From Candidatus Jordarchaeales archaeon (GTDB lineage: Archaea; Asgardarchaeota; Jordiarchaeia; Jordiarchaeales; Freyrarchaeaceae): DNA of 64,000 nucleotides. The DNA is taken from NCBI GenBank assembly GCA_038889235.1, contig JAWAHN010000003.1, positions 193,673 to 257,672 of the forward strand, written 5' to 3'. Below the pieces are notes generated by a model. It saw only the letters and a program-made list of their open reading frames with translations, ran no database searches and had not been told where the DNA came from. Each line of letters begins with the position of its first letter. Positions within the stretch are counted from its first letter, which is position 1. The position numbers and the translations under genes are program-made. Below are positions 5,307-41,178 of the stretch, piece by piece.

Positions 5307-6014
5307 TCATATGTCGCGAAGGTTCTTTATTTTTGGAAATTTTTTCACGGTAACTCCTGGCTCAACGAGGTATGGTGTGAATTCTCCGACGTCTGTGAAT
5401 TTTAGCAGTGGGGACATGTAGTCCCGTTCTTTGTTCATGAGGGTTCCGGTGGCTAGGGGGTGCATTGATGGTAATACTACCAGCTCTTTTTCAGCGTAGT
5501 CCCCCATGAGGAAGGCTTTGTACCTGAACTTTGTCCCGAACTCGTCCCTTAATAGTACTGAGGGGTGCTCGTGCCCTATTACTATTCTCTCAGCGGTTTG
5601 TGATGGGAGGCGGTGGCCGTGAAGGAAAAGGTAATCGCCTATTTTGACTTCGAGCTCCAACGGCAGCTCGTACTTCTTCATTAGGGTTACTATGAAGTTG
5701 TCGTGGTTTCCTCGGACAAATGCCAGCTTCACTTTCTCCTTTAGAAGGGTTTCTATGAGGTCTCTGACTTCAACCCACTCTTGCAGGCTTGCTTCTCCGA
5801 ACTCGTGCTTAAAGTCCCCGTTGATAACCAGAATGTCAGGGGAGTGGACGTTTATCATTTCGAGGATCATTTCCTTTATTTTTGGGTACTGGCTGGCTAT
5901 GAAGAGCCCCTCTTCCCTCAACACCTCCTCGTACCCTAGGTGTAGGTCAGCTACGACGAGCACGCCTACCTCTTCTATCAGGAGGCCCAAGTTTTCTAGG
6001 GGTTTTCCCCACAA
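5307..6014 (-). CDS. metallophosphoesterase (calcineurin-like), Lhr-associated MPE
   Basis: DLHLG, GDFKHE, GNHDN, HGH, GHEHP motifs; start overlaps the Lhr stop by 19 nt. Confidence 0.7.
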   Translation of the reverse strand: MWGKPLENLGLLIEEVGVLVVADLHLGYEEVLREEGLFIASQYPKIKEMILEMINVHSPDILVINGDFKHEFGEASLQEWVEVRDLIETLLKEKVKLAFVRGNHDNFIVTLMKKYELPLELEVKIGDYLFLHGHRLPSQTAERIVIGHEHPSVLLRDEFGTKFRYKAFLMGDYAEKELVVLPSMHPLATGTLMNKERDYMSPLLKFTDVGEFTPYLVEPGVTVKKFPKIKNLRDI

Positions 6015-8536
6015 GAGGATGCCTCCACTACTTTCTGGTAGAGGTATTCCAGTAGCTTGAGCCTGTCCTCCATCAATATGACGTCTGACAACCCTGAGAG
6101 GTATACTCCGTGGGCTAGGGGGCTTGGGACAGGGGTTTTCACGTGGACTATCTCCAGTTCTCCTCGCTCTATTGACTTTAACACCTCGATGGCGTTTTTG
6201 ATGTCCATGACGTCTTCCATGATCTCCCTCTCGGTCTCTTTAAGTATGGGGAACCCGTCGATCTCGGATACCGCCCTCAGGAGGGCTTCCGCGTTCCTTA
6301 TCTGTCTCTTCGCCCCTATTTCGTAACCCTTGTAGTTTCTGAGGACCATGAAGCTTCTCGTTGCGACGTGGCGGAACCTTCTCTTGAACATCTCGGTGTT
6401 TCTTATGGCCTTGGACAGTATCTCCCTTAGGTTGGATGAGGAAACCTTGCTCACGAGGAGGCGCGCGTCAACCCTTCTTCGCGGAATAGTGAGCATGAAG
6501 CCGTGGTCGGTGACTGAGACCCCGACGTTGACCCCGAGCTCCTTGCTCACAACCCAGGCATATGCTCTTGACAGAGCGTCGTTGACCCTCCTGCCGAAGA
6601 GGAACAGGAAGAGGAGGTTTTGCCGCCCGTCTTCGTCCTCGAACTCCTCTACTAGCAGGCTTCTTCCGTTAACCTCCACCCCAAGTTTCCCGAGGAAATC
6701 CTTTTCAAGCTTCAAGATGTCTAGGATTGCGTCGGCCGCCCACCTACTAACTCTGTACTCCTTCTCCAGCGTCTCCCTGTCTATTTCTCCTTTGAAAACG
6801 CGCTCTATGAATCGCCTAATCTCGCATGCCAGGTCGAAGCTTAGTGGTAGCATTTCGCTGAACCATGAGGGTATTGTCGGCTTCTTCCCCTTGGCGTCCT
6901 TCACGTAAGCGTTGAGCCCGCTTGCCTTCACAAACTCGTACACTCTTCCTCCTAGCACAAATATGTCCCCTGGTTCAAGCCTTTCAAGAAACTCTTCTTC
7001 GATGTTTCCAACGTACCTCTTCCCGGGGAGCGAGTAAACTTTTATTGCCACCTCGTCGGGTATCGTTCCGATGTTGAGCATGTAGATCACCTTCGCGTAC
7101 TTCCCTCTTCTGCCGAAAACCCTGTCGTGCTCGTCGTACCAAATCTTACCGTAAACCTTGTACGGCTCGAGACCATATCCGCCTGACAGGTATCTGAGGA
7201 CGCTCTCGAAGTCCTCCCACGAGAGACTCCTGAAACTATAGGATCTTCTCACAAGGTTGAAGGCCTCCTCAGCGCTCCACTTCTTTTCAAGGGCCATGCC
7301 AACAAGGTGCTGGGCGAGCACGTCGAGCGCGTTCTGTGGATGAGAAGTTCTGTCTAGGATGCCGTCGTAGGCGCACTTGACCATTACAGCGCACTCTAAC
7401 AGGTCGTCGTGGCTCATGCAGAGAAGTATCCCCTTAGAGACATCTCTAATCCTGTGGCCCGCTCTCCCTATCCTTTGGAGACATCTCGTGATGCTTTTTG
7501 GAGATCCTATCTGGACAACGCAGTCAATGTAACCTATGTCTATCCCCAGCTCGAGGCTTGTCGAGCTGACTACGACCTTCAGCTCTCCATTTTTCAGCCT
7601 CTCCTCAACGCTCAGCCTGATGTCCCTTGAAAGACTGCCGTGATGCGTCCCGATTAAGTCAACGTCAACGCTGTCCTGAAGGTGGAAGGCGACCTTCTCT
7701 GCTCCGGAGCGAGTGTTCGTGAAAACCAGCGTCGTCCGGTGCTCGTCTATTATCTCGCTTAGCCTCCTATACATTTCCCTGTTAAGGCTTTCAGCGTCAA
7801 TGTGTATGAGGTCTTGGGTGGGAACCTCAACTCTGATGTCCTTCTCCTTGGCGTACGCCGCGTTAACGACGACGCAGCTCCTACCCTCCCCGACGAGGAA
7901 GCGCGCAACCTCATCCAGCGGCCATATTGTAGCTGAGAGGCCTATTCTTTGGAACGAGGTTTGGTAGTTCAGCCTCTCTAGGCTCAACGAGAGGTGGGCG
8001 CCTCTCTTGCTTTCGAAAAGAGCGTGAATTTCGTCGACTATAACCCAGCGCGGCTCCAGTTTGTTCCTGAACCTTGAGGCGTTCAGTATTATAGCCAGGG
8101 TTTCAGGGGTTGTTATCAGTATGTGTGGCGGCTTCTTGAGCATCTTTTGCCTTTCATTCGAGGATGTGTCTCCAGTTCTCACAGAAACTCTCACGAAGTC
8201 AAGACCCATCTCTTCGAGGGGGACGAGCAGGTTGCGCTTGATGTCGTTGTTAAGCGCCCTAAGCGGGCTAACATAGATGGCGTAGACCTTGTCTTCGAGT
8301 ACTCCGTTCCACTCCATGAAGGCAAGCTCACTTATTATGGTAAGGAAGGCTGCGAGAGTCTTGCCTGTCCCAGTTGGACTAGTGATGAGAACATTCTCAC
8401 CCTTATGGATTAACGGGATTGCCATGGACTGTGGAGGGGTGGGTTCAAAGCGGGAGTACCACCTAGCAACCTTCGGGTGTAGGAGGGATAGAATCTCATC
8501 CTTGGAGTAAACTCGGTCAGCGTAACGCACACTCAT
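5996..8536 (-). CDS. lhr: Lhr-like (Lhr-core) superfamily 2 DNA helicase
   Basis: 846 aa; Walker A SPTGTGKT, DEIH box, helicase C motifs (QRIGRAGH); length and MPE partner fit Lhr-core. Confidence 0.75.
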   Translation of the reverse strand: MSVRYADRVYSKDEILSLLHPKVARWYSRFEPTPPQSMAIPLIHKGENVLITSPTGTGKTLAAFLTIISELAFMEWNGVLEDKVYAIYVSPLRALNNDIKRNLLVPLEEMGLDFVRVSVRTGDTSSNERQKMLKKPPHILITTPETLAIILNASRFRNKLEPRWVIVDEIHALFESKRGAHLSLSLERLNYQTSFQRIGLSATIWPLDEVARFLVGEGRSCVVVNAAYAKEKDIRVEVPTQDLIHIDAESLNREMYRRLSEIIDEHRTTLVFTNTRSGAEKVAFHLQDSVDVDLIGTHHGSLSRDIRLSVEERLKNGELKVVVSSTSLELGIDIGYIDCVVQIGSPKSITRCLQRIGRAGHRIRDVSKGILLCMSHDDLLECAVMVKCAYDGILDRTSHPQNALDVLAQHLVGMALEKKWSAEEAFNLVRRSYSFRSLSWEDFESVLRYLSGGYGLEPYKVYGKIWYDEHDRVFGRRGKYAKVIYMLNIGTIPDEVAIKVYSLPGKRYVGNIEEEFLERLEPGDIFVLGGRVYEFVKASGLNAYVKDAKGKKPTIPSWFSEMLPLSFDLACEIRRFIERVFKGEIDRETLEKEYRVSRWAADAILDILKLEKDFLGKLGVEVNGRSLLVEEFEDEDGRQNLLFLFLFGRRVNDALSRAYAWVVSKELGVNVGVSVTDHGFMLTIPRRRVDARLLVSKVSSSNLREILSKAIRNTEMFKRRFRHVATRSFMVLRNYKGYEIGAKRQIRNAEALLRAVSEIDGFPILKETEREIMEDVMDIKNAIEVLKSIERGELEIVHVKTPVPSPLAHGVYLSGLSDVILMEDRLKLLEYLYQKVVEASSCGENP

Positions 8537-9150
8537 ATGGAACGGTTAAGTGGGAAGCCCTATAAGAGTTTCTAAGACGGCGGAGGTATTAAGTGGCCAA
8601 TTTTTCGGCAAAATCCACGTTACCTTTCAAAATTATTGGTTACTGGTGTCCCTCCTGAGAACCAGAACATACTATAACGGTAAACTCTACGTTCCGACAA
8701 GGGTTAGGAGACGCTTGGGTTAGAGGATGGGGACAATTTTGAGATATAGCCCTTAAACCTAAACCCGTAATTCTCCCATACTCTTTCGTCGAGAAGCCGG
8801 CAGTATAAGTCTGAGATACAGGTGATGTGTTGGCTTAATCGGTATATGTGTTGACAGTACTGCAACACCATAGCATCCACGACACTCTAACTCGAGGAGA
8901 GCAGTATAGTTGCTGGGTTGAGTGGTGTGAATGGAAGCACCCCCTCAGGGAGTAAAGACACCTACTAGGTGACCTAGGAGACCAAAAAGGGAACTTATAG
9001 TTAACTTTGCTAAAGCGGCACTATCTCTATGGTGGACTCTAAGCTGCAGACGGGATCGGATGATACCCTTCTAGCTGTAGGCGTATGGAGCTCCCGTGCC
9101 GGCTGGGCGCTGTACCATGGAATAGTGGAAGCAGAGATGACTCATTAGGT

Positions 9151-9495
9151 CTAGAACTCCGGTTCTACGATGACCGCCGTACCGTAGGCCAATATCTCGG
9201 CGGCCCCGGCCATTACAGCTGACGTAGAAAACCTCATAGCTATAATTGCATTGGCTCCCATGCTCTTGGCCTTCTCGATCATCCTCCTCAAAGCTTCATC
9301 CCTTGATCGAGCTAAGAGATCCGTGTACTCTTTAATCTCGCCGCCAACCAAGTTCCTTAATCCTGCCACTATATCGCGGCCCAAGTGCCTAGCCCTCACG
9401 GTACTTCCGCTTACAACTCCTAAAACCTTTCTTATTTTGTAGCCGGGCACGTACTCCGTCGTGGTAACTATGATGTCGCTGACCACTAACACCAC
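9151..9495 (-). CDS. YbjQ/UPF0145 family protein
   Basis: 114 aa; VTTTEYVPGYKI...GRDIVAGLRNLVGGE...ANAIIAMRF matches the YbjQ signature end to end. Confidence 0.7.
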   Translation of the reverse strand: MVLVVSDIIVTTTEYVPGYKIRKVLGVVSGSTVRARHLGRDIVAGLRNLVGGEIKEYTDLLARSRDEALRRMIEKAKSMGANAIIAMRFSTSAVMAGAAEILAYGTAVIVEPEF

Positions 9496-9724
9496 CGCGA
9501 CTTATAGTGGCGAAATTAACATTTATAAATTACTGGAGGAAGCAATGCTAAAGCTAATATCTGGAAGGTCTTCTGCGTGGGCGCGAAGCGCCTTTTAGTC
9601 TGCATTGTGCTGGAGGATGCAAGTACTACTTGAAAAGATGACGCCTTGCTGTATGGGTGACGAGGCGACTCGAAGAACCTCGATGCCGTAACCGTAGTTA
9701 GGGCTTTAGTGGGTAGGGTTCATT

Positions 9725-9742
9725 GAGGCTTACGTAAGCCTC
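9725..9742. repeat. perfect 18-bp palindrome gaggcttacgtaagcctc in ORF-free DNA
   Basis: Read directly; lies in a 600-bp region with stops in all frames. Confidence 0.4.
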
Positions 9743-10113
9743 TAAAATGTGGCCAAGTTCTACTTCGCCGCCACCAGCAGGAGGATGTAAAAAACTCTCA
9801 AATCAAAACTTACGGCTGAAATCTGCACGCCTTCCTCAGGTCGGCTACAAAATGTAAGCTGCAACCAACAGTAGACGGCCATAAAGAGCGTTGTGCTCAG
9901 GTTGGGAAAACAGGCTTAGAGAGGGAAGTTCTTCGACGCGCTACTGGCGTGCACTGCAAGGGGGAGTGTACTGGGAACGTTGAGGACTTTAAGCTTTTTC
10001 ATAAGAGCTGAGAACTCCCCCGGGTGTCACTGGGAGATGGTTGGCAGTTGACCCAGCCACTCGCAGAAACCGAGACGTTAGGGTGGCTGTCGAAGCCTGG
10101 CTGTCGCCCTGTT

Positions 10114-11943
10114 TCACAGGGTGCTCATGAACTTGTCAAGCTGCTGCTCTGTGTCCTCTGACTTTATGAATATTGGCACGTTGGTCATCCCGGTAGCTAT
10201 GTAGCTTGACAGGAGCCATTCTCCAGGCCTAAACTCAAGCGTTCTTTCAAGGATTTCCCGGTCTATCATGAACGTGTTACTGATAAGCCCTCTATCGTAG
10301 GGTCTGGGAAGGGTTCCTATGAAGTACGTGTGGAGCTGTTGTAAAGCTGAAGTGTTGAGGTGGGCTATGCGCTGCGTTACAAGGCAGCCTCCGAGCCCGT
10401 ACTTCCTCCCCTGCCTCAGGAGTCTTTCAACCTCTTCCGAGCAGGCCTTCTCTATCCCTCTCGCCTTGTCAGGGGCTGGGGCGAATTCCTGCGCCTCATC
10501 CCAGACGAAGAGAATGTAAGGCTTAACGCTGAACTCTCTCTTCCTCCTGGATAAAGCATTCCTGATCGTGTTAATTGTCAGCTGCTTGATCGTCTCAGGG
10601 TCTCCTATTGAGAGGCATATGAGTCTGAGGTCACTGTCGAAGAGTTTCTCCACTATGGTTTTCGGGGCTATGCCTCCTGCAACTTCCTCCTCAACCTTCC
10701 TCTCCTTTATCTTTGAGTATATTGTTTTGAGCGAGGAGAGCCAGCCGTAAAGGTTGCTCCTCTCGTAGACCCCGTATGTAACCTTGAAGTATTCCACGTG
10801 TTCGTCTAAATGCCTCACGTACTCCTCGTCGACCTCGTCCTCCTCCACGAACCCCCTAGAAGTCATGTAGCTATCCGTGAACATCCTTATCTCAGCTATG
10901 GCATTCAAGTAGTTCGGCTTGTCGGCGTTTGAGCTCGCTAGGCTTTCCAGGGTTTGCAGGATATCTGCGAAGGTCGGTGTTTCCACGCTGCGCCTCACGA
11001 GGTGTGTGACCCGCCCCAACGAAAGTATTTTTCCAAGCCCCTTGAGGACGCGTGGGTCGTTTTCGTACTTTTTCGGCTTAACTATTGAGAGGTTGAACTC
11101 TTGGGGGGAGTCGACTTCACGCTCCAATACCACGAGCGACGGGATTGAGGGGTCTGCCAGGAGGTCCATTAGGAGGAACGGGTACTCGCATGAAATGTCG
11201 AAGATCACTATCTTGGTGTCCCGCGTGTGTCGCAGTATCTTCCTTATTAGGGTTGCGAGGAGGTTGCTTTTTCCGCCGCCGGTGAAAGCGAATATCCCGA
11301 AGTGATACCTGACAAGCGACTCGAAGTCAACATATATTGGAATCTCCTCGCCGGCGGACTCAAACATTTTCAGGCTGCCTATGTGCCCTCCCTCTCCTTG
11401 GATCTTGTCGATCACCCCTCGGTTGTACATGTTCTTTATCATCTCCCTGTTGAGGATGTAAACCTGTTCGCCTACCACCGGGTATGAGAAACCTCTAACG
11501 TACTCCGCTGACTCCCCTGAAACGACTAGGTCATAGTTTACGGGTATTGCTGAAATGTGTATGGCCATGGTTGCCTTGTCCTTTGTCTCCCAGTCTTGAA
11601 CCGTTTGCTCTATGACCTCGAACTGCATGGGGAAGTATTGGTGCTCCTTAACGCCTAGGAGGCCGAAGTGCTCCGGCCAGAAGCGGGAGAGCTCCATGAG
11701 CGTGTAGCGCTCCACTCCTCCCCCACTTTTAAAGTTCTTCACGGCGAGGAGCATTCCGACGTCTAGAAGCCTCAGCAGCTCCCTGTCGTACTCGACGAGC
11801 ACGGTGCAAGTGTACGGGGCGGAGGTGCCAAGCCGCTCGTCTGATGCGGCTTTAGTAGGCTCAACCTTGCTTAACCTTGCCCTAAAACGCCCGTCGAAAT
11901 CCGTGAAAAAGAGGCTTTTCCTGTCGTCCAGCCTATTCAACAC
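10114..11943 (-). CDS. HerA-like FtsK/HerA-superfamily ATPase (DUF87-type)
   Basis: 609 aa; Walker A FTGGGKSNLLATL, Walker B ILFVWDEAQEF, downstream LVTQR sensor/arginine motif. Confidence 0.65.
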   Translation of the reverse strand: MLNRLDDRKSLFFTDFDGRFRARLSKVEPTKAASDERLGTSAPYTCTVLVEYDRELLRLLDVGMLLAVKNFKSGGGVERYTLMELSRFWPEHFGLLGVKEHQYFPMQFEVIEQTVQDWETKDKATMAIHISAIPVNYDLVVSGESAEYVRGFSYPVVGEQVYILNREMIKNMYNRGVIDKIQGEGGHIGSLKMFESAGEEIPIYVDFESLVRYHFGIFAFTGGGKSNLLATLIRKILRHTRDTKIVIFDISCEYPFLLMDLLADPSIPSLVVLEREVDSPQEFNLSIVKPKKYENDPRVLKGLGKILSLGRVTHLVRRSVETPTFADILQTLESLASSNADKPNYLNAIAEIRMFTDSYMTSRGFVEEDEVDEEYVRHLDEHVEYFKVTYGVYERSNLYGWLSSLKTIYSKIKERKVEEEVAGGIAPKTIVEKLFDSDLRLICLSIGDPETIKQLTINTIRNALSRRKREFSVKPYILFVWDEAQEFAPAPDKARGIEKACSEEVERLLRQGRKYGLGGCLVTQRIAHLNTSALQQLHTYFIGTLPRPYDRGLISNTFMIDREILERTLEFRPGEWLLSSYIATGMTNVPIFIKSEDTEQQLDKFMSTL

Positions 11944-12098
11944 TCACACCCAACTAGAACTTGAAAGGAGAGAGATAAAAACTTAAAGTAGATTCTCTTA
12001 GGAAACGTGAGCCCACCGCTCGTGTTATGCGCGTTAAGCTGCACAGGTTTCTCGGGCGCCAAGTGTGATAAACGGCGGTCGTCAACCGCCTAGACACG

Positions 12099-14018
12099 TT
12101 ATTTCGTCCTCCTAGCCTGCTCAAACTCTGCCCTCTTCTCCCTGAAAGTGGACATGTAGAACATGAACCTTCTAACATCCTTGTTATTGGCAACCCAGTT
12201 TTTCATGGAGTCTATTACGCGCTTGAAGAGGCCGTAGTGCCACTTGGCCACTTTGTCCGCTATGAAAAGCGGCTTGTTGTGGCCGAAAGCCTCCGGAATG
12301 GACATGGTGCTCATTGAGGCTAGTACGCAGAGGAGCATGTTTTGAATGAGGTTTTCTACGTGTCTATCCCTGTACACTATGACTTCCAGCGGCTCCTCGT
12401 ACCCGCTGTAAACGTTGACTAGTGGCAGTGTAGTCTCGCCTTTCAGGTCGAACTCCGGGTAGGCCAGCCTGTCTATTAGGAGGACGTTGCTCCTCAGGAG
12501 GGGGTCGTGTTTGCCCTCAGCGAGCTGAACGTAGGACCTTAGGAATAGGCGTTCTATGGCTGTCTTGTTCCTCCTGGCTCCGAGGACGAAACCTGCCCCC
12601 CTGTTTCTGTCGGGGATTATCGTCGGGAAGACTGAGTCGTACTCTATGAGGGACCACGGGGGGCGGACATCCTCCCAGAACGCCACCGAGAAAGATTGGA
12701 GGAGCATGCGGTCCGTGTTTGGAAGCGCTGAGAGGACCTCTTGCGGCGGTACCTCCTTGAACACCCGAACGTTTCCACAAATTGGGATCACGTGGTTCTT
12801 GAAGTCTCTGGCGTAAGTGTCCTTGCTTATCCCTACCAGGAGCTTCCTGTTCCTCCAGCATTCCTCCATCACCATGTGCTGGGCGAAGAGAGTGAGGAAG
12901 GCTAGGTCTAGCGTTGTCAATATGCGCCGCTCGCCGCCAACGTTAATCCACATTTTGTTCTCGTCCACGGTTCCAGCGTCTTCAATGAAGAGTCGCTCCC
13001 CGATAAATTCCACGACCTTCCTAACTCTGCTCCACGAGTCCCTGTATCTCTCAGCCAGGTGGTACCTACCTTTCTTCTCGACGAGCACGCCCTTCGCGGT
13101 GAGAGTTTTAAGGTGGCGTTTAACCCTCTCCTTCCTCCCCCCCTTAACGCCGAGCATTTCACATATCTGGTTTGGTGTTAGGGGTGTTTCAGAGCGCTCG
13201 AGGAGGAATACTATGCTCGACTTCAAGTAGTCCCCCCTAGGTGGAGGGAGGTTGAGCCCCGTGTTGACGACGCGGTGCCTTGCAAGCATAAGGTCTTCTT
13301 CGTCGATCGGGGTTCCGTCGACTTCAAAGCCGAGTATGGCGCACATCTTCCAGAGCCTTCTCCTAGAAGTGTCATACATGATGGAAGAGTGGGTGTTAGA
13401 GAGGGAGCGGTCCATGAGAATTATCTTCGTGTCGGGGTTCTTGTTGGAGGCAAAGAAGTATGCTAGGTAGAACTCAGCAAAGGTCATAATCCAGTTGGCT
13501 ATGCGCGAGTTGTTTACGACGTCCTCATCCGCTAGGGGTCTCGAGAGACCGCCCTCCTCTGTGAAAAACGTTTGGTCGACCTCGACGACCTGGTTCAGGA
13601 AGAGGGGGACACAGCTTGAGACACCGCAACCTTCGCGCATTATATGGTCATCGTAGCTCACGCTTGGAGGCTTGTCGTCGTGGAATTCCACGGTTCCAGT
13701 TGAGGCGTAAGCTCCACCGAAGAAGAGGACCATGTCGAAGAAGATCTGGGAGTACTCTGTTCCATCTATTGCGGCGAAGCGAACTTTGTCAGACCCAAAG
13801 AAGGCGCATGCAGTTTCACGCGCCCGCGCAAAATCCAGCTTAGAGCAGATGAGGTTTGAGAGGAGGGCGTAGAGCTCGGATGCCACACTAAGCCTTTCAG
13901 AGTACTCCTCGACTTGACTAAGGATACCTGACTTCAAAATCCTGCTAACCCTGCCAAGCTGCTCGCTCAGAAAAGACGCACACAATAAAACCACCGCCAG
14001 GTGAGGGAGGCACTTCAC
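12099..14018 (-). CDS. NurA-like nuclease with inserted winged-helix segment and long C-terminal extension
   Basis: 639 aa; NurA motif I AAIDGTEY, second acidic motif ILMDRSLS; wHTH-like TPNQICEMLGV...RVKRHLKTLTAKGVLVEKKGRYHL around aa 280-330. Confidence 0.5.
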   Translation of the reverse strand: MKCLPHLAVVLLCASFLSEQLGRVSRILKSGILSQVEEYSERLSVASELYALLSNLICSKLDFARARETACAFFGSDKVRFAAIDGTEYSQIFFDMVLFFGGAYASTGTVEFHDDKPPSVSYDDHIMREGCGVSSCVPLFLNQVVEVDQTFFTEEGGLSRPLADEDVVNNSRIANWIMTFAEFYLAYFFASNKNPDTKIILMDRSLSNTHSSIMYDTSRRRLWKMCAILGFEVDGTPIDEEDLMLARHRVVNTGLNLPPPRGDYLKSSIVFLLERSETPLTPNQICEMLGVKGGRKERVKRHLKTLTAKGVLVEKKGRYHLAERYRDSWSRVRKVVEFIGERLFIEDAGTVDENKMWINVGGERRILTTLDLAFLTLFAQHMVMEECWRNRKLLVGISKDTYARDFKNHVIPICGNVRVFKEVPPQEVLSALPNTDRMLLQSFSVAFWEDVRPPWSLIEYDSVFPTIIPDRNRGAGFVLGARRNKTAIERLFLRSYVQLAEGKHDPLLRSNVLLIDRLAYPEFDLKGETTLPLVNVYSGYEEPLEVIVYRDRHVENLIQNMLLCVLASMSTMSIPEAFGHNKPLFIADKVAKWHYGLFKRVIDSMKNWVANNKDVRRFMFYMSTFREKRAEFEQARRTK

Positions 14019-14433
14019 TTTTAAAAGTAAGAGGATGATGCAATTTAAAGCCCTCGCACAAAAATCCGATATGCTTCCAGAAAAAAGATTGAAGATACAC
14101 GCCTTTAATGTTCGGCACGAAGCTTCCAGCAGAAAAGCGCCCTAGGACACCCACTTGCTTAAATCAACTCCTTTTTTACGCACGCTTGCAACGAGAGGAG
14201 GCCTTCACATTCAACAACCACCTAGCAGGATCCTCCTTTCGACAGCCCACTACACCGCCTTCTTAAAATTAAGGATGCAGGTGCTCAGCCTAACGCATAC
14301 AAGAAAGACTTTGCCCCCCTCCAGCGCACGGAAACCTCTCACTTGGTTTCCCTTCCTCCGGCAAAAGCCGACGATCCCTGAAAGGGTTTCACCCTTTTGA
14401 AGTTAGGTGTAAAGCATGGATGAAAAAAGGAAG

Positions 14434-15264
14434 TTAGTTTATCTGGTAGTGTTCGTGTCTCCAGAAGGAGAGGAGCCTTGAAGTCTGAGCCTTCTTGAGC
14501 TTTTCAGGCCTCTTGACCATCACAGTAGCATTGTTCGGGCAGTTTAGGGCGCACGCCCCGCAGCCGTAGCACGCCAACTGGTCAACCTCGATTTTTCCGT
14601 CCCTTAGACGTCTCGCGTCGAACTGGCAGATTTTAATGCACTCCCCGCACCCCTCGCACTTCTCCTTGTCGACGTAGGCAAGGTAGTCTCCGGGGTCGAA
14701 GACGTGTACTCCAGCTATCCTCTGGGCTAGTATCGGTATGCATGAGTGCCTGCAGCAGTTGCATATGACGAAGGAGGTAAATGAACCCCCAGCAATGCAG
14801 AAGGCGTAGATCATCGGAACCAGACCCTGCTTGTTGAAGTTCCTTATGAGCTCCTTAGCCTTTTCCTTGTCAATCAGCTCGTAGTCCTCCTTGAAGAAGC
14901 CTTTGTATATTGCGGCGCCTGTCTTTATTGTGATGTCGCTCTTCATGGAGCAGTCACAAGCCCTTGTTCCAAGCCTACACCTGCAGCTTCCAACAGCAAT
15001 CAGCAAGTTGCTATCTATACTATCTAAGTAGCTTGCGAGCTCCTCGCCCGTCATAACCTTTCCATGCTGGCCTAAGCCTAGCATCAACGCCACGTTGAGG
15101 TACACTAGGGGGGAAAACAGCAGTCTGCCTATCCTGCTCCTGTAGGGTCCACGCAGGATGAAGTAGTTTAACTTCACATAGGGTATCTCGAAGCGAGCGT
15201 AGACCATGAGCGCCATTTTCCTTAGAAGGCTCCTCTCGTCGGGCTTAAAGTGAAATAGACCCAA
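14434..15264 (-). CDS. 4Fe-4S dicluster domain protein
   Basis: 276 aa; CNCCRHSC and two CxxCxxCxxxC motifs; paralogue of 36262..37377. Confidence 0.5.
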   Translation of the reverse strand: MGLFHFKPDERSLLRKMALMVYARFEIPYVKLNYFILRGPYRSRIGRLLFSPLVYLNVALMLGLGQHGKVMTGEELASYLDSIDSNLLIAVGSCRCRLGTRACDCSMKSDITIKTGAAIYKGFFKEDYELIDKEKAKELIRNFNKQGLVPMIYAFCIAGGSFTSFVICNCCRHSCIPILAQRIAGVHVFDPGDYLAYVDKEKCEGCGECIKICQFDARRLRDGKIEVDQLACYGCGACALNCPNNATVMVKRPEKLKKAQTSRLLSFWRHEHYQIN

Positions 15265-15774
15265 AACATCGCCTCCATCTATTCAGAAGACAGGCTTTCA
15301 ACGAACCTTCTCTCCGTTCGGAACAATTAAACCTACAAACGTCAGGATTAAAAGGTTTTCACATTCAACAAGCAACAGGTTCACAGGCTTCGGAGCAGGG
15401 TTGACAGCCGCCTTAAGAGAGAAATGAGAGCGACTGGCTCGCACGATAATTCAAGACGCCTTCCGCATGTTTTGTAACGGGCCCGTAGAAAGAGACATCA
15501 TTCTGATGGTTCTCCAGATAAACCGCTGGCAGAACAAGAATAGACAGATGTACGAGAAAGATAGCACTAATGTTAGGATCAACATGACACTATCCTCTTG
15601 GAAGTTCTGGTAAAACGAGAGGTATATGAGCAAAAGCAGCCAAAACCTTAATAAATGAGGTTTATGCCTTTGGGATAGAGTGATAAATAATTAATCTGTA
15701 AGAGATGGCTTGTGGAGTGGTTGAGGGAAGTTTAGTTATGGGGGGTTGAGTATACGTCTGCTAAAGAGATAGAT

Positions 15775-16077
15775 TTGGAGGCTAGTACTTCAATAATCAT
15801 GATAGCTTCTAAGTATATTATCGCGAGTGTTATCACGGTTGCTGTTGGGTCGGTGAGCATTGTTTATGGAGTTCTCACCTACATCGTTTATGGCACTTAT
15901 GCTTCCAGTGTAGCGATGTTTATGGGGTTCTTCATTGGCCTGGCGCTGATTCTAATAGGGGTGTTCTTGACGTTTTGGGGCTTATATTGGATGCGAAGCG
16001 AAGGGAGAAGGCTGAGAGAGAAACTCGGAAGGGAACCTCAAAAAGCAAAGGAGGAGAAGAAGGTTGAAGGAAAGTAA
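15775..16077 (+). CDS. small membrane protein (two-TM hairpin)
   Basis: 100 aa; TM1 with SIVYGVLTY, TM2 FIGLALILIGVFLTFWGLYW, basic C-tail. Confidence 0.4.
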   Translation: MEASTSIIMIASKYIIASVITVAVGSVSIVYGVLTYIVYGTYASSVAMFMGFFIGLALILIGVFLTFWGLYWMRSEGRRLREKLGREPQKAKEEKKVEGK

Positions 16078-16474
16078 AGAAGGAGGAAAGAGCACTATTC
16101 AGAGAAAGACGAGGCACCCTACACCCAGATGGGAGGACATCACGGAGCAAGTCTATAGCAGGATCAACTGGTATGCCACGCGCTTCATAATTTTCTCCGT
16201 TGTCGGCATGGTGGTTGGGGTTATAGGCATAGTTTATGGAGTATTAGCCTACTATTTTCTCGTGAATCCACTCACGACAATCAACCCTGTCACGGTCGCC
16301 ATTTATTACGAGATAAATCCCGCAATGCTCTTCACTCTAAAAACGTCAGGGCTTCAAGAAATCTCAGTGTTTCTAGGCGTTTTCATAGGCATCGGCTCCA
16401 TAGTTGCCTCCCTTGTATTGCTGGCGTGGGGAATATTCTGGAGAAGGAAGGTGGACGCGCGCAGCATATTCTAA
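16064..16474 (+). CDS. small membrane protein, paralogue of 15775..16077
   Basis: 136 aa; shares the IVYGVLAY and FIGIGSIVASLVLLAWGIFW topology; overlaps the upstream gene by 14 nt. Confidence 0.4.
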   Translation: MKESKEGGKSTIQRKTRHPTPRWEDITEQVYSRINWYATRFIIFSVVGMVVGVIGIVYGVLAYYFLVNPLTTINPVTVAIYYEINPAMLFTLKTSGLQEISVFLGVFIGIGSIVASLVLLAWGIFWRRKVDARSIF

Positions 16475-17440
16475 AGATCCAACGCGACCGGCATCTAGTA
16501 ACTAAGCTTGAGTACTCCTACAGGTAATCTATTCTCACGGTGAAGTATACGGAGAGCGAATTGAGCTGATTGCATGCAATGTAGTTGCTGGAATCATGCC
16601 TTAGGGAACACTGCGTAGCAGAGACTTCACCGTACTGATTTGATGAACGGGAGTTGGTTTCATATAACTAAGTTTTTAAGTGTGTGAGAATTGGGTTTGG
16701 AACTGTCGCCGAGTGAGTTTGTTCAAAATTGATGACTGAAAGATATGAGGAGGGTTAGGGTGCCAAGAAGGAAAACAGCTAAGAGAGCTAGGGCAGCGAG
16801 AAGGGCGAGGAGACATATTCTTCTTGGAGCATTCCTACTGATCGTTCCCCATTCGTTCCAAACATATACTTCGCCTTTACGAGTAGAGGTGACTTCCCTC
16901 GCTTAGCGGCAGAATAGACTTCTGGTTGACCAGCTCGATTGTTGGGGTCATAGTTCTGATAATAGGAGTCATTGTTCTCGTAGGATACCTCGTATCCGAC
17001 CGGGATGCTTCACTAGTTCTCGTTGTACTCGGAGGAGTAATAGGATAATAGGATTAGCTTGAGTATCTTATGACTTTTATCGATGCTACCGGGATTGCCC
17101 TTCAGGCCAGCAGCGGCGTTCCCAGATGGGCTCTTAGCCATATTTGGAGTACTAGTGAGATAGTCTTTCCATTTCTTTTTCTCTTTAAGAGAAATTTCCA
17201 ACCTTAGTGTTGAAAGCAGACAGCAACTGCAAGTAAAATTGGCGCCTCTTACAGATTGCACTTCACTGCATAGTTTTCCATGTAGTCTATTAATAAGTAT
17301 ATTATTTTAATAAGATTTATTAGGTTCAATTTTTCAGTACTATTACCAAGAAGGGAGCGCCCGCCTTTGAGCGCCCTCAAGTAGCTGGTGGGGGAACAAA
17401 TGCTAATAATTTTTCCTCGCCAGCTTCAAGCTTAACAAAT

Positions 17441-17923
17441 GTGAATGAGTCCCTCCTGAGGAGGGCTGCTTTAAGGCGGTTGCTTCCGCCACGAGAAAGA
17501 GAGAAAAATGGAGAAGGGATGGCTTTGAAGGTTGTAGTACAGTCCTGCTGCGGACCAGAGAAAGTGTACGGACTAGTTGCAAGGATGGCTGCACGGCTTC
17601 TGGCGGAGCAACTCAGGCCCGACAAAGTGCTTTTCGTTTGCCTCCCCAGGTTGGCGCATGGAGACGAAGAAACTAAGAAACTGGTTGAGGAAAACCCCTG
17701 CATAACCATCGATGGATGTGTAAACAGGTGCGCTAAAAACATCGTCGAACAGGCTGGAGGAAAACCTATGGTGAGCATAACCGTCGTCGACGTGCTTAAA
17801 GAGAACAGACATCTAATGCCTAGGGCTCAGCAGCTTATGAAGCTAGACGAAAAAGGAGTGAAACTCGCCGAAAAAGTGGCAGAAAGGCTAGCTGTCGAAG
17901 TAGACTACTTGCTGGGGGAGTAG
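17441..17923 (+). CDS. DGC-domain (putative Zn-binding) protein
   Basis: CCGPEK...IDGCVNRC Cys pattern with DGC motif. Confidence 0.45.
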   Translation: MNESLLRRAALRRLLPPREREKNGEGMALKVVVQSCCGPEKVYGLVARMAARLLAEQLRPDKVLFVCLPRLAHGDEETKKLVEENPCITIDGCVNRCAKNIVEQAGGKPMVSITVVDVLKENRHLMPRAQQLMKLDEKGVKLAEKVAERLAVEVDYLLGE

Positions 17924-17925
17924 CT

Positions 17926-18360
17926 ATGAGCTGGGAAGCGGTAATAGCTAAAGGTGTAGGAGTCCTCCCCTGTGTCGGGGATATCCCCGAAGGCGAAGTG
18001 ACCCGGATAGCGGCGAGGATCGCAGCGGACGATCTGTGTAAGGGAAAGGCGACTGTCCTCTCGCTTCCATTGATCCTCTGCGGTAACAAAGAGGAGACGG
18101 CTTTTATCGAAAGCTCACCCGTAATAGTTGTCGACGGCTGTGAAAGAAAGTGTGGTCAATGTGCCATTAAGAAACTCGGATACTTGGCTGATGAAACGCT
18201 GGTCGTTACGGACATCGCTAAAAGCGAGAAGATAGAGCATCTAACACCGGAAATGATAGATGAACTTTCATACAAAGTGGCAGTAAGAATAGCCGAGAAG
18301 ATCAACAAGATTCTAAGGAAGATAGCCGAAGACAGGAAAATAAGGCCCATGGAGTTGTAA
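17926..18360 (+). CDS. DGC-domain (putative Zn-binding) protein, tandem paralogue
   Basis: VVDGCERKCGQC motif; 2-nt gap to the upstream paralogue. Confidence 0.45.
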   Translation: MSWEAVIAKGVGVLPCVGDIPEGEVTRIAARIAADDLCKGKATVLSLPLILCGNKEETAFIESSPVIVVDGCERKCGQCAIKKLGYLADETLVVTDIAKSEKIEHLTPEMIDELSYKVAVRIAEKINKILRKIAEDRKIRPMEL

Positions 18361-18604
18361 CGCTAACCTAACCCTTCACCAAAGTAATCTAACATTAGTG
18401 AAACCCGACTGGCATCCCTTCATCTCACTTTTTATCGCTTTTAACGTTCCCTAAAACTTGGGACAGCTCGGGTTCCTGCTTCTTCTAGAAAAATTAAAGT
18501 AAAATGAAGAAAGATTGTGAAAAAAGTGATCTTTACTCGAAAACTTTTTATCTATCTTTTCTGAAGCCTCCTCCCTAGGAGGCTTTCTAGGGGAAGGGAG
18601 GCTT

Positions 18605-20011
18605 TTGTCTTCTGATATGGTTTCCCTTCCAGAAGAGATTGTTGAAGCTCTTAGCCGTAGAGGGGGGTTCAGCCTTCTAGTTAAGGGTGATCCAGGATCC
18701 GGGAAAACTATTTTCGCGTTAAGTGTTTGCAATGCTTTCAGCAAATCCTATGAATGCTTCTACGTGACTTCAAGGTCCACGGCTGACGAAATCAAAAGGT
18801 ATTACCCAATAGTGGAGAAGTTTTTTGACGAGAGGAGAGTTATAGATGCGACGGAAAGTAAAGCTGAAGTCAAGCTTGAAACCGCCATTTCGCTGAGAAT
18901 GTATGACAAACCCTCGTTTCTTCAAAGACTTTACTCCATAATTCACTCCACAATTGGAGCCGAAAAGAGAGCACCACTAGTAGTCGTAGACAGTTTGGAA
19001 GCATTAAAGGAGAGCATGAAGCTTGCTAGGGACGACTCAAGCCTCGAGGACGCATTAATAGACATAGCTAGAGAAACTGAGGGGAAAATTCTTTTCGTTT
19101 CGGAGAGCGCGGAGAAATCGTTCTTAGATTACTTGGTCGACGGGATTGTAACTCTCAGAAAGGAGGAAGATAACGGTCACTTGTTAAGGTTTATCAAAAT
19201 AGAGAAGCTGCGCGGCATCAAAGTAGTGCGGCCTACCTATTTGTTCACTCTTGAGGGAGGAATATTCAACGCTACACGCTTTGAAGCATTCTCTATGACG
19301 CAAAAAATCATTCAAAGCAACGAAAAATTTGAACTAATATACCGTGAGCCAACCATTAAAGGGCGTGTTTCGACAGGAATAAGGCAACTCGATGAGCTAA
19401 TTGGAGGATACATTAAAGGAAGCCTCAACCTCATAGAAGTAGCAAAAGGGGTTGGAGAATTTTACGACTACTTTTACCTGCCAACAGTGATAAACCACGT
19501 TATCAGTGGAGGAAAAGTGGTTATAATTCCTCCAGGAGGGCTCTCCGCGTCTTTCATAAGGCACGTCTTAACGAGGATTCTACCTGAAGCCAGCGTTAGG
19601 AACAACATCACCATAGTAAAGTACATGTACGGGGAAGAGAGCGATACGACTATGCTTAAAGGAAAGAACCTTCTTGAGGACGCCGAATTCTTCTTTAGAC
19701 AGCTCGGGGAAGAAGGGCTTATCGTGTTTGGAATGGACACGCTTCAACACGTATACGGACTAGACGAGCTAAAGAGATCCCTTGGACGACTGGTAGCCAG
19801 GATTAAGCACGACAAAATAGTTGCAGTTGGAATAGTTAAGTACGGGCAAGAGATCATAGACCTGCTTAACCACCTAGCCGATACACACCTAATGGTCAAG
19901 AATGTTAACGGAAACATAATTGCCTACGGCATCATACCGTGCACACCAGCCTTATACCCCCACCTTGCAAAAGGAAGAATCTTGGAGGTAAATCTAACAG
20001 CCATAATATGA
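18605..20011 (+). CDS. KaiC-like RecA-superfamily ATPase (C-terminal domain degenerate)
   Basis: 468 aa; first domain Walker A GDPGSGKT; second RecA-like domain lacks a P-loop. Confidence 0.6.
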   Translation: MSSDMVSLPEEIVEALSRRGGFSLLVKGDPGSGKTIFALSVCNAFSKSYECFYVTSRSTADEIKRYYPIVEKFFDERRVIDATESKAEVKLETAISLRMYDKPSFLQRLYSIIHSTIGAEKRAPLVVVDSLEALKESMKLARDDSSLEDALIDIARETEGKILFVSESAEKSFLDYLVDGIVTLRKEEDNGHLLRFIKIEKLRGIKVVRPTYLFTLEGGIFNATRFEAFSMTQKIIQSNEKFELIYREPTIKGRVSTGIRQLDELIGGYIKGSLNLIEVAKGVGEFYDYFYLPTVINHVISGGKVVIIPPGGLSASFIRHVLTRILPEASVRNNITIVKYMYGEESDTTMLKGKNLLEDAEFFFRQLGEEGLIVFGMDTLQHVYGLDELKRSLGRLVARIKHDKIVAVGIVKYGQEIIDLLNHLADTHLMVKNVNGNIIAYGIIPCTPALYPHLAKGRILEVNLTAII

Positions 20012-20223
20012 AAATTTCGCAACCAAGAGCGACTTGCAATCGAAACAACAGTTCAAGTGCACGTCTCCCCCAGCAACATGAAATTAAAGCTGCTGAAAGA
20101 CTATCATGCAAAAGTGCACCACGTTGACGCTTCAAAGGAGGAGCACAACCTCCTTTTTCTTTCCCTCAATTCTTTATTCTCTATTAACTTTTTTAATATA
20201 AAGTATAAGGTATATATATTGAA

Positions 20224-21639
20224 GTGCATCTGAAGTTATTTGTAGTTGAAACGGCTGTTGGGTGGAAGGGGCTCTTGAAGTCTGGTATCAGGGGTCTGGA
20301 CGATGTGGCGGGTGGTTTTCCGGATAGGGGGATTGTGGTTATTGCTGGTGGCCCGGGGATAGGTAAGACTGTGATGGCTGCTCAGTTCGTCTATAATGGT
20401 GCGGTCATGTTTGGCGATAGGGGGGTTTACGTTAGCTTTTCTGAGTCTAAGGAGGAGTTTTACGGTAACATGCTTGCCTTTGGCATGGATTTCGACGAAT
20501 TGGAGAGGAAGGGGTTGTTTCGCTTTCTCAGCCTTATGATCTTGGGTGGAAAAAACTCGTTTACGCGGTGTATGGATGAAGTATTTGAGTCTATTGCTGC
20601 TATTAAGGCTAAGCGTGTGGTTTTAGATTCGATAAACGCTGTAACATTCGCGATGAGCGACGAAGAGGCTAGGCGCTTCGCCAATGTTTTGAGGACGCTT
20701 ATGAAGAACATGGACGCTGTCTGCTTTCTGGTGTACGAGACTTCGAGTGAAGTTAAGAGCGAGGAGCTTGGGCCCATAGCTTTCGCAGCCGACATGGTTT
20801 TACTTTTGAGGTGGAAGGAGGAGGAAGGTGTGAAGGTGAGGGAGCTCGAGCTATTGAAGACTAGAGGGGCCCCGGTGGAGAAGGCGTCCTACGAGTTTGA
20901 CGTTGACAGGGAGCATGGTGGAGTATGGGTGATCGCGCTGCCGAAAAGCATACCCGACGTGGGAAGTGAAGTGGTGTCTACTGGTTTAAACTGGTTTGAC
21001 AGCGCTGTAGGTGGAGGGTTAAGGCGGGGGAGCCTCACGCTGATTAAAGGTGAGACAGGGTCAGGCAAAACTTGTCTCAGCGCTCAGATAGCTATCGGTA
21101 TAGCTAGTGCTGGGAAACGGTGTGTCTACGTTTCAACTGAGGACGGAGAGAGCGTGGCGAGGATCATTAAGGGATTCAACCCCGACGCGGAGCTGGAGGA
21201 CGAACGGCTGAATGTGGTGAGCATTGTTCCAGAGGAGTATGGGGTTCAGAGGATATACAGTTTCTTCGACAATATAGTGCGCAAGAGGAGGCCCGACTTG
21301 CTCGTAATAGACAGTTTGACGCCGTTCAAGCACAGCCTCCCACAGGCGAGACTTTACAAGTTTCTAAGGTTCCTCCAACTTCTGGCAAGGGTTAACGGCT
21401 TGATCGTGATAGCTACACTCACCCTCTCATTAATAGAGGAGGCCCTTGAAACAGATATTCTAGGACTCTTCGACAACATGCTGATACTGAGAAACATGCC
21501 AACGGACGGGGCGCCTCACAGGCTACTGTTCATAGTTAAGGTGAGGGGGAGCGATCACAGGAAGACACCTATTCGGCTTGAAGTGACAAGCAAGGGGGTA
21601 ACGTGCGTAAGCGAGGAAAGCCTCATGCCAGCAATTTAA
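20224..21639 (+). CDS. KaiC-like double-domain RecA-superfamily ATPase
   Basis: 471 aa; two Walker A motifs GGPGIGKT and GETGSGKT; KaiC/GvpD/Rad55-type architecture. Confidence 0.65.
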   Translation: MHLKLFVVETAVGWKGLLKSGIRGLDDVAGGFPDRGIVVIAGGPGIGKTVMAAQFVYNGAVMFGDRGVYVSFSESKEEFYGNMLAFGMDFDELERKGLFRFLSLMILGGKNSFTRCMDEVFESIAAIKAKRVVLDSINAVTFAMSDEEARRFANVLRTLMKNMDAVCFLVYETSSEVKSEELGPIAFAADMVLLLRWKEEEGVKVRELELLKTRGAPVEKASYEFDVDREHGGVWVIALPKSIPDVGSEVVSTGLNWFDSAVGGGLRRGSLTLIKGETGSGKTCLSAQIAIGIASAGKRCVYVSTEDGESVARIIKGFNPDAELEDERLNVVSIVPEEYGVQRIYSFFDNIVRKRRPDLLVIDSLTPFKHSLPQARLYKFLRFLQLLARVNGLIVIATLTLSLIEEALETDILGLFDNMLILRNMPTDGAPHRLLFIVKVRGSDHRKTPIRLEVTSKGVTCVSEESLMPAI

Positions 21640-29889: not shown

Positions 29890-30049
29890 TTGAATGAAGG
29901 CGGACGAAAACTAAAAATTCTTTCCAGAAAGCAACCGGGGGCCGGCAGTCCCGCTGAGCTGCTTTCACCTTTCAGCTTCAGAAGAGTTTAAGAAACTTGT
30001 GCAGTGGTTTTTTAAGCAGCGAGATGTTAATTGATGATTAAAGGAGCGT

Positions 30050-33000: not shown

Positions 33001-33337
33001 TGTCATCAGGCTAATGAAAGAGAAAGGGATAGGTAGACCGTCAACGTACGCCACCATAATCCAAAAGCTCCTCATAAGGGAGTACGTTAGAGAGGTTAAG
33101 AAGGGGAAGCTTATACCCACGGAAAGGGGTGTGGAAGTGTATAACTACCTCAACCAGCACTACGGGAAGTTCATTTCGGAGGAGCGGACGAGGCAGCTTG
33201 AGGAGAAGATGAGCATGATAGAAAAAGGTCTGCTCAACTACCAGGAGGCGCTGGACGAGATATACCACGAAGTGAGGAGCCAGATACTCCCGGTAGGAGA
33301 GGAAGCACGAATACCAACATCTACCTCGCCAGAGTAG
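30050..33337 (+). CDS. rgy: reverse gyrase
   Basis: 1095 aa; N-terminal Zn finger CPSCGGDL, helicase-like APTGTGKT/FVDDVD, C-terminal type IA topoisomerase region; hallmark of hyperthermophiles. Confidence 0.9.
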   Translation: MREAHLGGLMADGVFAGLCPSCGGDLTLDEVELMTCKNTGARLCMFDIDQEFKEFLEFFRVAVGANPRAFQRLWARRILRGESFAAVAPTGTGKTSFGAAMALFLAGRGLKSYLIVPTTLLVRQVVETLNEFMERTGVKVDLIWYHSGLRGEEKERFFRSLSEGGFQILVTTSQFLSAHFSKLKGNVFNFLFVDDVDSVLKASRNVERLLTLLGFEVVNGRWMGEPAGVLMVSTATAKTGGKVVLFKKLLDFDVGSSSFEVRNIEDVYFGRKSLDNLLSTVKLMGGGGIVYCSSSEEAEHVMEFLNANGIRAGFVGVRSKKDFDEFCRGELDVLVGAAYYYGLLVRGLNLPERVRYTVFYGAPFFRVRLVDLDSASTRLLRVLAGIFKDDERLKPYIANVEKYAEKVRTILKENFPEMKPSVDDVVVRENEILLPDVRTYIQGSGRASRLHAGGITKGVSILLEDEKLAGAFIKRASYYDIEFKGKDEVDFERLKEEVDRSRREVRVSEVELVRPALFIVESPTKARQIARFFGQPSMKVFRDKNGEVVLIAYEVATGKYVMTVTASLGHIVDLVRDRGFFGVLVEENHRYIPVYGAIKRCRGCGYQYVGEGVCPRCEGRDVGAPIDSKSRIEVLRRLAKDVELVIVGTDPDAEGEKIAWDLKVLLKPCAREIKRAEFHEVTKKAVIQALNQLRDVDEKLVEAQIVRRVEDRWDGFSLSRKLWDRFRDYNLSAGRVQSPVLGWIIKRAEESRKKRPVTIVDELSLVIDGLASREPMLEIKLLERRVEKQTPPPPYTTDMLLRDANAILKIPVDRTMQLAQDLFENGLITYHRTDSTRVSERGLAVAKEYLKEEFTPRTWEAEGAHEAIRPTRPLDRVSLVRLIEEGVIGLSMELTPSHLALYDLIFRRFMASQCPPVKVVKDVYRVVADGVETTEVRVIEAEGKAYQLYKYMLPPIKPPLPEGMRKVKARVLRLPKEPLYTQSDVIRLMKEKGIGRPSTYATIIQKLLIREYVREVKKGKLIPTERGVEVYNYLNQHYGKFISEERTRQLEEKMSMIEKGLLNYQEALDEIYHEVRSQILPVGEEARIPTSTSPE

Positions 33338-40974: not shown

Positions 40975-41178
40975 TTAAATGTAGTAGAGGGCGTTGCGAG
41001 GAGAAGTAGAACACAGTCGCCGGTAGAGTATTAAAGCCAAGAGAATGGTGGTTCAGGGGTAAGGCTTGTTTCCGGGCGGCCTTCGATGGGCGCCCCACAG
41101 TTCCACGTCCCATAAACCAGAGGAGGGTGCTCGGTATAAATACATTTTGGTAAGAATGCCTCATGTGCCCGCGGCGAC

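Follow-up and report, generated by a model that had tools for sequence, protein, structure and literature searches.

HerA–NurA carries out long-range DNA-end resection in archaea, but nearly all studies of it concern Sulfolobales and Thermococcales, where it is found together with Mre11–Rad50. Related pairs have been described in other settings. Some bacteria are known to carry nurA-herA pairs that stand alone, with no Mre11/Rad50, and the repair roles of bacterial NurA–HerA are non-essential or even negative (PMC7776575). CRISPR-associated paralogues, Cas HerA and Cas NurA, include Tagg_0815/0814, Calkr_2542 and VMUT_1471 (PMC3973734, PMC6546367). TdpAB (PDB 8WET/8WIV) is part of TdpABC, a phosphorothioate-based defence that is reported from extremophilic bacteria (PMC12914056). 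Here we analyze a pair of this kind in a 64,000-nucleotide stretch of DNA (the window; contig JAWAHN010000003.1, positions 193,673 to 257,672) from a Candidatus Jordarchaeales archaeon. Two genes, nurA and herA, lie head-to-tail on the minus strand and encode a predicted NurA-family nuclease with an inserted winged helix and a full-length HerA ATPase. We suggest, with somewhat better than even confidence, that they form a conserved, lineage-specific HerA6–NurA2 machine for DNA-end resection or processing with a housekeeping role.

An earlier sequence-only reading of the window had proposed a stand-alone, non-canonical pair, in which a NurA-like nuclease with a winged-helix insert is partnered by a HerA-like ATPase, as a defence or DNA-processing module. 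The identity of the pair, the positions of both open reading frames (ORFs) and the signature motifs all agree with our results. The supposed excess length of HerA, the nature of the C-terminal half of NurA, the novelty of the pair and its link to defence require revision, as described below.

The two proteins of the pair

The NurA assignment is clear by structure and marginal by sequence. The Pfam NurA family (PF09376) gives the window protein 19.4 bits (E 8e-4), below its gathering cut-off of 21. Of 54 family members, 26 match it at E<=0.01, with 1.2e-6 for the strongest; some family members are labelled NurA by PGAP. No NCBIfam family matches the window NurA, and no solved NurA is reached by sequence, whether the search starts from the single sequence or from a 54-sequence profile. 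The assignment therefore rests on structure, together with the PF09376 matches. The AlphaFold2 model has a predicted local distance difference test score (pLDDT) of 82 and a predicted template-modelling score (pTM) of 0.86. Its closest structural match is Sulfolobus solfataricus NurA (2ygk_B; score 21.7), with 302 of 319 residues aligned at 16% identity, followed by Thermococcus NurA (9x1l_G; 14.0), TdpB (8wet_G; 13.1), Deinococcus NurA (7f6d_G; 13.1), TM1739 (13.0) and, at about 9-11.5, EndoV and PIWI domains. The RNase-H/PIWI-like NurA fold is thus predicted across the whole domain, and because 302 residues align to 2ygk_B, it must extend past the winged helix. The C-terminal region of ~300 residues, to which the sequence-only reading assigned no function, is instead the second half of the NurA fold with a beta-rich insertion, and we reject the idea of a separate C-terminal domain. 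The winged helix is placed between the third catalytic residue and the strand leading to K399, the beta-rich insertion occupies approximately residues 450-550, and the protein carries helical extensions at both its N- and C-termini.

The active site of Sulfolobus NurA consists of D58, E116, D133, K202 and Y298, of which K202 is essential (PMC3326311). The window protein contains the two motifs recognized earlier, AAIDGTEY and ILMDRSLS, and D85, G86, T87 and D203 are invariant in an alignment of 54 homologues; D85 is also invariant in 10 distant ones. Based on residue order and secondary structure, we infer that D85, E182, D203, K399 and the IPEAFGHN...ADK segment (residues 574-593, with H580) correspond to the five Sulfolobus residues. 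By this mapping, the protein has the D-E-D residues, the lysine and the aromatic position ahead of the final helix that characterize the NurA family. E182 and D203 are 21 residues apart; the Sulfolobus residues E116 and D133 are separated by 17. Within residues 574-593, P575, E576, F578, G579, H580, N581, L584, D588 and K592 are invariant in the 54 sequences. H580 is replaced by tyrosine in distant relatives, which matches the conserved Y298 preceding the last helix of Sulfolobus NurA. This segment probably completes the active site, near the HerA-binding patch.

The 609-residue protein is a full-length HerA. It matches Pfam DUF87/HerA (PF01935) at 3e-17, its best PADLOC match is HerA PDLC01055 ("HerA, Type III coevolved"; 9e-41, 138 bits), and its sequence matches in the PDB include Thermococcus and Sulfolobus HerA and also defence HerAs. 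The model is of moderate quality (pLDDT 74); nevertheless, Foldseek aligns it over its full length (~610-700 columns) to HerA structures, the top match being the HerA of T. kodakarensis as solved together with NurA (9x1l_A, 6e-17). The complete HerA architecture is present, including a beta-rich N-terminal region (residues 22-164 in the model). Walker A, Walker B (VWDEAQE) and the QR motif, all noted in the sequence-only reading, are invariant among 30 aligned homologues; the role given to Q524-R525 in Table 1 is one we presume from the HerA/FtsK family. The same reading took the protein to be abnormally long, by about 100 residues. Solved HerAs have 500 (Sulfolobus), 592 (Thermococcus) and otherwise 571-696 residues, and a length of 609 is ordinary within the family range of 500-696; the idea is rejected. 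The NCBIfam equivalogs for canonical HerA, NF040819 and NF040937, score only 64 bits (cut-off 970) and 38 bits (cut-off 800). Weak similarity to CedD, the Ced DNA-import ATPase (33 bits), and to TraC/VirB4-type ATPases is generic P-loop similarity, and a PHROGs scan gave only generic HerA/terminase-like P-loop and helix-turn-helix matches.

Conservation of the pair and its possible roles

Each protein has more than 1000 close homologues of very uniform length. Relatives are encoded in at least 247 GTDB species-representative genomes, one per species, and we surveyed the best 80 of these at least 247 loci, each from a different assembly. Nearly all of the 80 are from Bathyarchaeia, with the addition of Jordarchaeia/Freyarchaeia. 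The closest proteins come from metagenome-assembled genomes of Jordarchaeales/Freyarchaeota (79-100% identity), Asgard and Bathyarchaeia sequences are ~50% identical, and the mean column identity is 65-66%. A rough neighbour-joining tree groups all Jordarchaeia/Freyarchaeia sequences together, next to a large clade from Bathyarchaeia, and in this tree the subfamily appears to be vertically inherited. In 74 of the 80 loci, the gene immediately downstream of nurA encodes a HerA orthologue; three of the six exceptions are cut by a contig end, so that 77 loci are informative. This constant adjacency supports functional coupling of the two proteins. In most orthologues the genes abut or overlap (spacing of -25 to +25 nucleotides), and among the loci seen the pair occurs as a single copy.

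The neighbours of the pair are largely metabolic. In Bathyarchaeia the synteny includes genes for pyruvate:ferredoxin oxidoreductase subunits (37 of the 80 loci), and a radical-SAM protein, PadR and GNAT also recur; in a Freyarchaeia chromosome the pair adjoins an ATP-dependent DNA ligase. No repair or defence genes are among the recurrent neighbours of the 80 loci, nor are DpdA/TGT, DUF6884 or DNA methyltransferase genes. Neither screening for motifs nor clustering of the neighbouring proteins detected Mre11/Rad50 within 10 kb in these loci, and none is encoded in the whole 64-kb window, so the pair does stand alone. The sequence-only reading had also considered that orthologues might sit in a canonical Mre11/Rad50 operon, an arrangement seen in none of the 80. 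In the window, there are no cas genes, CRISPR array, DNA methyltransferase, TGT or toxin genes around the pair. No copies were found in IMG/VR or in plasmid collections. From the conservation, pairing, synteny, tree and lack of viral or plasmid copies, we conclude that the pair behaves as a stable chromosomal core module rather than a defence-island gene.

A wider profile search of 1.8 billion representatives returned 499 relatives. Many of the distant ones are full length (~600-620 residues) and retain the catalytic residues at 23-29% identity. Relatives in Culexarchaeia have a housekeeping context. A second subfamily is patchily distributed over Thermoplasmataceae, Methanolobus, Methanomethylovorans, Nitrosotenuis, Fimbriimonadales, cyanobacteria, Terriglobales, Anaerolineae and Thermodesulfovibrio. 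All six loci of this subfamily examined with DNA are in a defence-like or mobile setting, usually as a tight co-oriented cluster with DNA-modification genes (Table 1). DUF6884, which recurs in them, has a YaaA-like DNA-binding fold (PMC11701544), and the DUF6884 protein of locus L088 has weak PADLOC matches to DpdC and DpdA. The HerAs of L088, L089 and L092 match the "Type III coevolved" model over their full length (166-261 bits); the NurA-like proteins tested have no PADLOC match other than a winged-helix match to Csa3. In gene content these clusters resemble a small restriction system linked to 7-deazaguanine or methylation, in which NurA–HerA would be the nuclease arm. Judged by gene neighbourhoods, some lineages appear to employ the long-NurA/HerA chassis for restriction within modification-based systems, analogous to TdpAB. 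We found no published description of these clusters of NurA–HerA with modification genes.

For the pair in the window, we favour the housekeeping reading because of its conservation and synteny, its structural closeness to Sulfolobus NurA and the lack of a modification or defence partner. From the observed folds, motifs, pair conservation and genomic context we infer the following assembly, substrate, winged-helix role and cellular function. By analogy with the Sulfolobus, Thermococcus and Deinococcus complexes, HerA would assemble into a hexameric ring that uses ATP to pump duplex DNA, beginning at a free end, with a NurA dimer docked on the ring. The RNase-H/PIWI-like sites (D85, E182 and D203, assisted by K399 and residues 574-593) would cleave either one of the unwound strands or both. 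An additional contact, to duplex DNA or DNA ends or else regulatory, is the most likely contribution of the winged helix. The pair would most likely serve recombinational repair as the DNA-end resection or processing engine of Jordarchaeia/Freyarchaeia and Bathyarchaeia, genetically uncoupled from Mre11–Rad50, and as a RecBCD-like side effect it could also destroy linear foreign DNA.

Several observations weigh against the housekeeping reading. The pair is not indispensable: in CP070791.1, a complete 1.2-Mb Bathyarchaeota chromosome, nurA is cut to 487 residues (L058:9842-11305) and no herA is found within 10 kb, which shows that the pair can decay in reduced genomes. The window HerA fits the type III-associated PADLOC model (138 bits) better than the NCBI double-strand-break-repair HerA (only 64 bits). 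The defence-like or mobile loci of distant long-NurA members make a defence ancestry plausible. Finally, if the same genomes also encode canonical HerA–NurA and Mre11–Rad50, then "the" resection machine would be the wrong label.

This last point raises the question whether the pair is a second, specialized HerA–NurA that acts beside a canonical HerA–NurA/Mre11–Rad50 set elsewhere in the genome, for example at stalled forks or crosslinks, in the import or export of DNA, or in resolving chromosomes. The distance of both proteins from the canonical families is consistent with such a paralogue: HerA is far under the equivalog cut-offs, NurA lacks any NCBIfam match, the family profile reaches no solved NurA by sequence, and linkage to Mre11/Rad50 is never seen in the 80 loci. 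The window also encodes other repair helicases (Lhr with MPE, and an MrfA-like protein). The weak CedD and TraC/VirB4-type similarities point the same way, but are generic P-loop matches. Moreover, no canonical pair is seen in the 64-kb window or in ~1.3 Mb of relatives' flanks, a small sample of each genome. We consider a specialized paralogue unlikely, although it is the strongest of the alternatives.

The pair could instead be an antiviral or anti-plasmid restriction module, in which HerA translocates on invader DNA and the winged-helix NurA degrades it, while the winged helix recognizes a modification or other mark that protects self DNA, as with phosphorothioate in TdpAB or in the Dpd-like relatives. 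The top match of HerA in the defence library is the "Type III coevolved" model, and the relatives at 23-29% identity, scattered over bacteria and archaea, lie in integrase-bearing or defence-like regions, in operons with DpdA/TGT, DUF6884 (YaaA/DpdC-like), Dcm/Dam, HNH and SIR2–ORC genes. No modification, cas or defence gene adjoins the pair in the window or recurs in the 80 loci, no viral or plasmid copies were found, and the degree of conservation and the apparently vertical pattern are unusual for defence genes. A restriction role is thus improbable for this locus. The suggestion of a defence module in the sequence-only reading is not supported at this locus, with its conserved pair and metabolic neighbours; it finds support in the distant relatives, and the pair may have a defence ancestry or a dual role. 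The housekeeping, paralogue and restriction readings are mutually compatible, as an end-dependent helicase–nuclease can also degrade linear invaders.

A more elaborate scenario, which we regard as a long shot, is that the long winged-helix NurA and its HerA are an ancient clade that originally acted in modification-dependent restriction (in bacteria and archaea, with DpdA/TGT and DUF6884 for 7-deazaguanine, Dcm/Dam, or type III CRISPR) and was domesticated in Bathyarchaeia and Jordarchaeia/Freyarchaeia as their only end-resection engine, replacing canonical HerA–NurA, with the winged helix as a sensor of DNA status or ends.

Layout of the locus and its surroundings

Table 1. Positions of the features of the pair (window coordinates) and of the clusters found with distant relatives (coordinates of each locus)
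Feature	Position	Strand	Description
NurA-family nuclease gene	12099..14018	-	maximal ORF, 639 residues
D85 codon (AAIDGT)	13764..13766	-	putative catalytic Asp, first core strand (78-93); proposed D58 counterpart
E182 codon	13473..13475	-	putative catalytic Glu, helix 171-190; proposed E116 counterpart; invariant in close and distant homologues
D203 codon (ILMDRSLS)	13410..13412	-	putative catalytic Asp, end of strand 197-202; proposed D133 counterpart; invariant in close and distant homologues
Winged helix-turn-helix insertion	13044..13247	-	approximately residues 258-325, within the NurA fold
K399 codon (GISKDT)	12822..12824	-	after strand 393-398; candidate K202 counterpart; invariant in close and distant homologues
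Segment IPEAFGHNKPLFIADKVAKW	12240..12299	-	residues 574-593; loop and start of last core helix
nurA-herA spacer	11944..12098	-	155 nucleotides, read directly
HerA-family hexameric translocase gene	10114..11943	-	609 residues
Walker A GGGKS	11266..11280	-	residues 222-226; G222, G224, K225 and S226 invariant in 30 homologues
Walker B D482-E483 (VWDEAQE)	10495..10500	-	invariant in 30 homologues
Q524-R525	10369..10374	-	sensor or arginine-finger candidate; invariant in 30 homologues
Locus L089	L089:1514-19217		integrase and VirB4-like element; NurA–HerA, HNH, DpdA (271 bits, cut-off 200), MazG, second TGT gene
Locus L095	L095:9541-15284		QueD, NurA, HerA, TGT, DUF6884
Locus L091	L091:215-4971		NurA, HerA, DUF6884, QueT
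Locus L088	L088:6475-15939		NurA, HerA, YaaA/DUF6884 protein, SIR2–ORC-like gene, Dam
Locus L094	L094:10001-18422		NurA, HerA, YaaA/DUF6884 protein, SIR2–ORC-like gene
Locus L092	L092:443-7791		NurA, HerA, Dcm methyltransferase; Mrr nearby

Orthologues have 626-628 residues, and their alignment with the window protein begins at residue 9-12. Translation of nurA therefore probably starts at GTG 13994 (631 residues) or TTG 13985 (628 residues) rather than at the start of the maximal ORF; an A/T-rich box is immediately 5' of the candidate start. The herA start is consistent with orthologues, and a segment of ~10 residues present in Bathyarchaeia is missing from the Jordarchaeia/Freyarchaeia clade. 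The spacer between the genes contains a GC hairpin right after the nurA stop (12074-12090), an A/T-rich box (~11976-11987) and GGTG (11947-11950) ahead of the herA GTG. The hairpin may be a terminator and the A/T-rich box a promoter.

Whereas most orthologues overlap, the window genes are separated by this spacer, and the nurA-herA junction has repeatedly received insertions in other genomes. One of these is a TnpB (Cas12f1-like_TNB and MJ0013) IS200/605-type element at L004:11909-13081; insertions are also found in L007, L036 and L043 (~2.1 kb) and L065 (~1 kb). Another Jordarchaeia genome and two Bathyarchaeia genomes have junction insertions of comparable length.

The pair lies between ORF-poor blocks, as the sequence-only reading had described: two of ~600 nucleotides each (8537-9150 and 9496-10113) and one of 415 nucleotides (14019-14433). 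The first two blocks flank the YbjQ gene and contain no ORF longer than 58 residues. Nucleotide conservation with Jordarchaeales relatives is absent from the blocks, except for 42 nucleotides 5' of herA. Tandem Repeats Finder and repeat searches of the blocks showed no CRISPR and no tandem or spaced repeats, and an Rfam scan of window positions 8000-18700, intergenic blocks included, gave no match at E<=0.1.

Pfam scans of the window identify as neighbours an Lhr-core helicase with an MPE phosphoesterase, YbjQ, a ferredoxin-domain protein, KaiC/GvpD-like ATPases, an MrfA-like helicase, and cobalamin-salvage and other metabolic genes. Lhr–MPE is a repair pair known from bacteria. Here, at positions 5307-8536 on the minus strand, the 846-residue helicase (DEAD, WH_Lhr, DEAD_assoc) overlaps a 235-residue calcineurin-like phosphoesterase, 1.6 kb downstream of herA, a linkage not kept in the relatives examined. 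The tandem GvpD/KaiC-like and double-KaiC ATPase genes (18605-21639, plus strand) remain syntenic with nurA and the ferredoxin gene in contigs of related Jordarchaeales (L004-L006). Farther away, at 27331-33337, the MrfA-like helicase (DEAD, Helicase_C, MZB zinc domain and an N-terminal Lar-like zinc ribbon) is divergent from a gene for reverse gyrase (1095 residues), whose presence indicates that the organism is a thermophile. At 37501-42351 on the minus strand, a 1157-residue protein with a C-terminal VWA domain adjoins a MoxR-like AAA_5 ATPase (390 residues). This is the typical chaperone-like arrangement of a MoxR–VWA pair, in which the VWA partner is very large and otherwise unannotated.

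Comparison with described systems

HerA–NurA is a known kind of machine, and defence-linked pairs of the HerA/NurA type are already on record (the Cas-associated HerA/NurA and TdpAB), so the idea that such a variant had not been formally described does not hold in general. What is apparently new is the long NurA with an inserted winged helix and the status of the pair as a core module in Bathyarchaeia and Jordarchaeia/Freyarchaeia; we found no published account of either. A large share of uncultured archaea, including Bathyarchaeia and one Asgard lineage, would use a remodelled HerA–NurA that current family models mostly miss, which is relevant to annotating repair capacity in these genomes. 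The winged helix offers a defined target for asking how NurA engages DNA.

Compared with the canonical archaeal complexes (Sulfolobus solfataricus 2YGK/4D2I; Thermococcus kodakarensis 9X1L), the window pair shares the D-E-D(+K) pattern, the Walker A and B motifs and the adjacent, co-oriented genes, and Sulfolobus NurA likewise has N- and C-terminal helical extensions. In contrast, the window NurA is 1.6-1.9 times longer owing to its winged-helix and beta-rich insertions, and its identity to solved NurAs is only 13-16% over structural alignments. The gene order is nurA then herA, mre11 and rad50 are missing nearby in the window and in the 80 loci, and both window proteins fall under NCBIfam/Pfam cut-offs. 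The bacterial NurAs of Deinococcus radiodurans (7F6D), Thermus and Thermotoga (TM1739) are short in comparison, with 287-332 residues in solved chains.

The Cas HerA/NurA paralogues resemble the window pair in that they are always a HerA and NurA pair without Mre11/Rad50, and the best PADLOC model for the window HerA was built from that group (138 bits), a likeness confined to the HerA sequence. Unlike them, the window pair has no cas genes or CRISPR array in repeat searches and Pfam scans. It also differs from TdpABC: no tdpC-like modification gene adjoins it, its neighbours being YbjQ, Lhr, MPE and the ferredoxin-domain protein, and TdpB, with 358 residues, matches the window NurA less well in structure than the housekeeping NurA of Sulfolobus does. 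The Dpd-like NurA–HerA–TGT–DUF6884 clusters of the distant relatives are set apart by genes for DpdA/TGT, DUF6884 and DNA methyltransferase, none of which the window contains. The association of this sister subfamily with 7-deazaguanine and methylation genes suggests that one helicase–nuclease chassis can be used for both repair and restriction, comparable to RecBCD and TdpAB.

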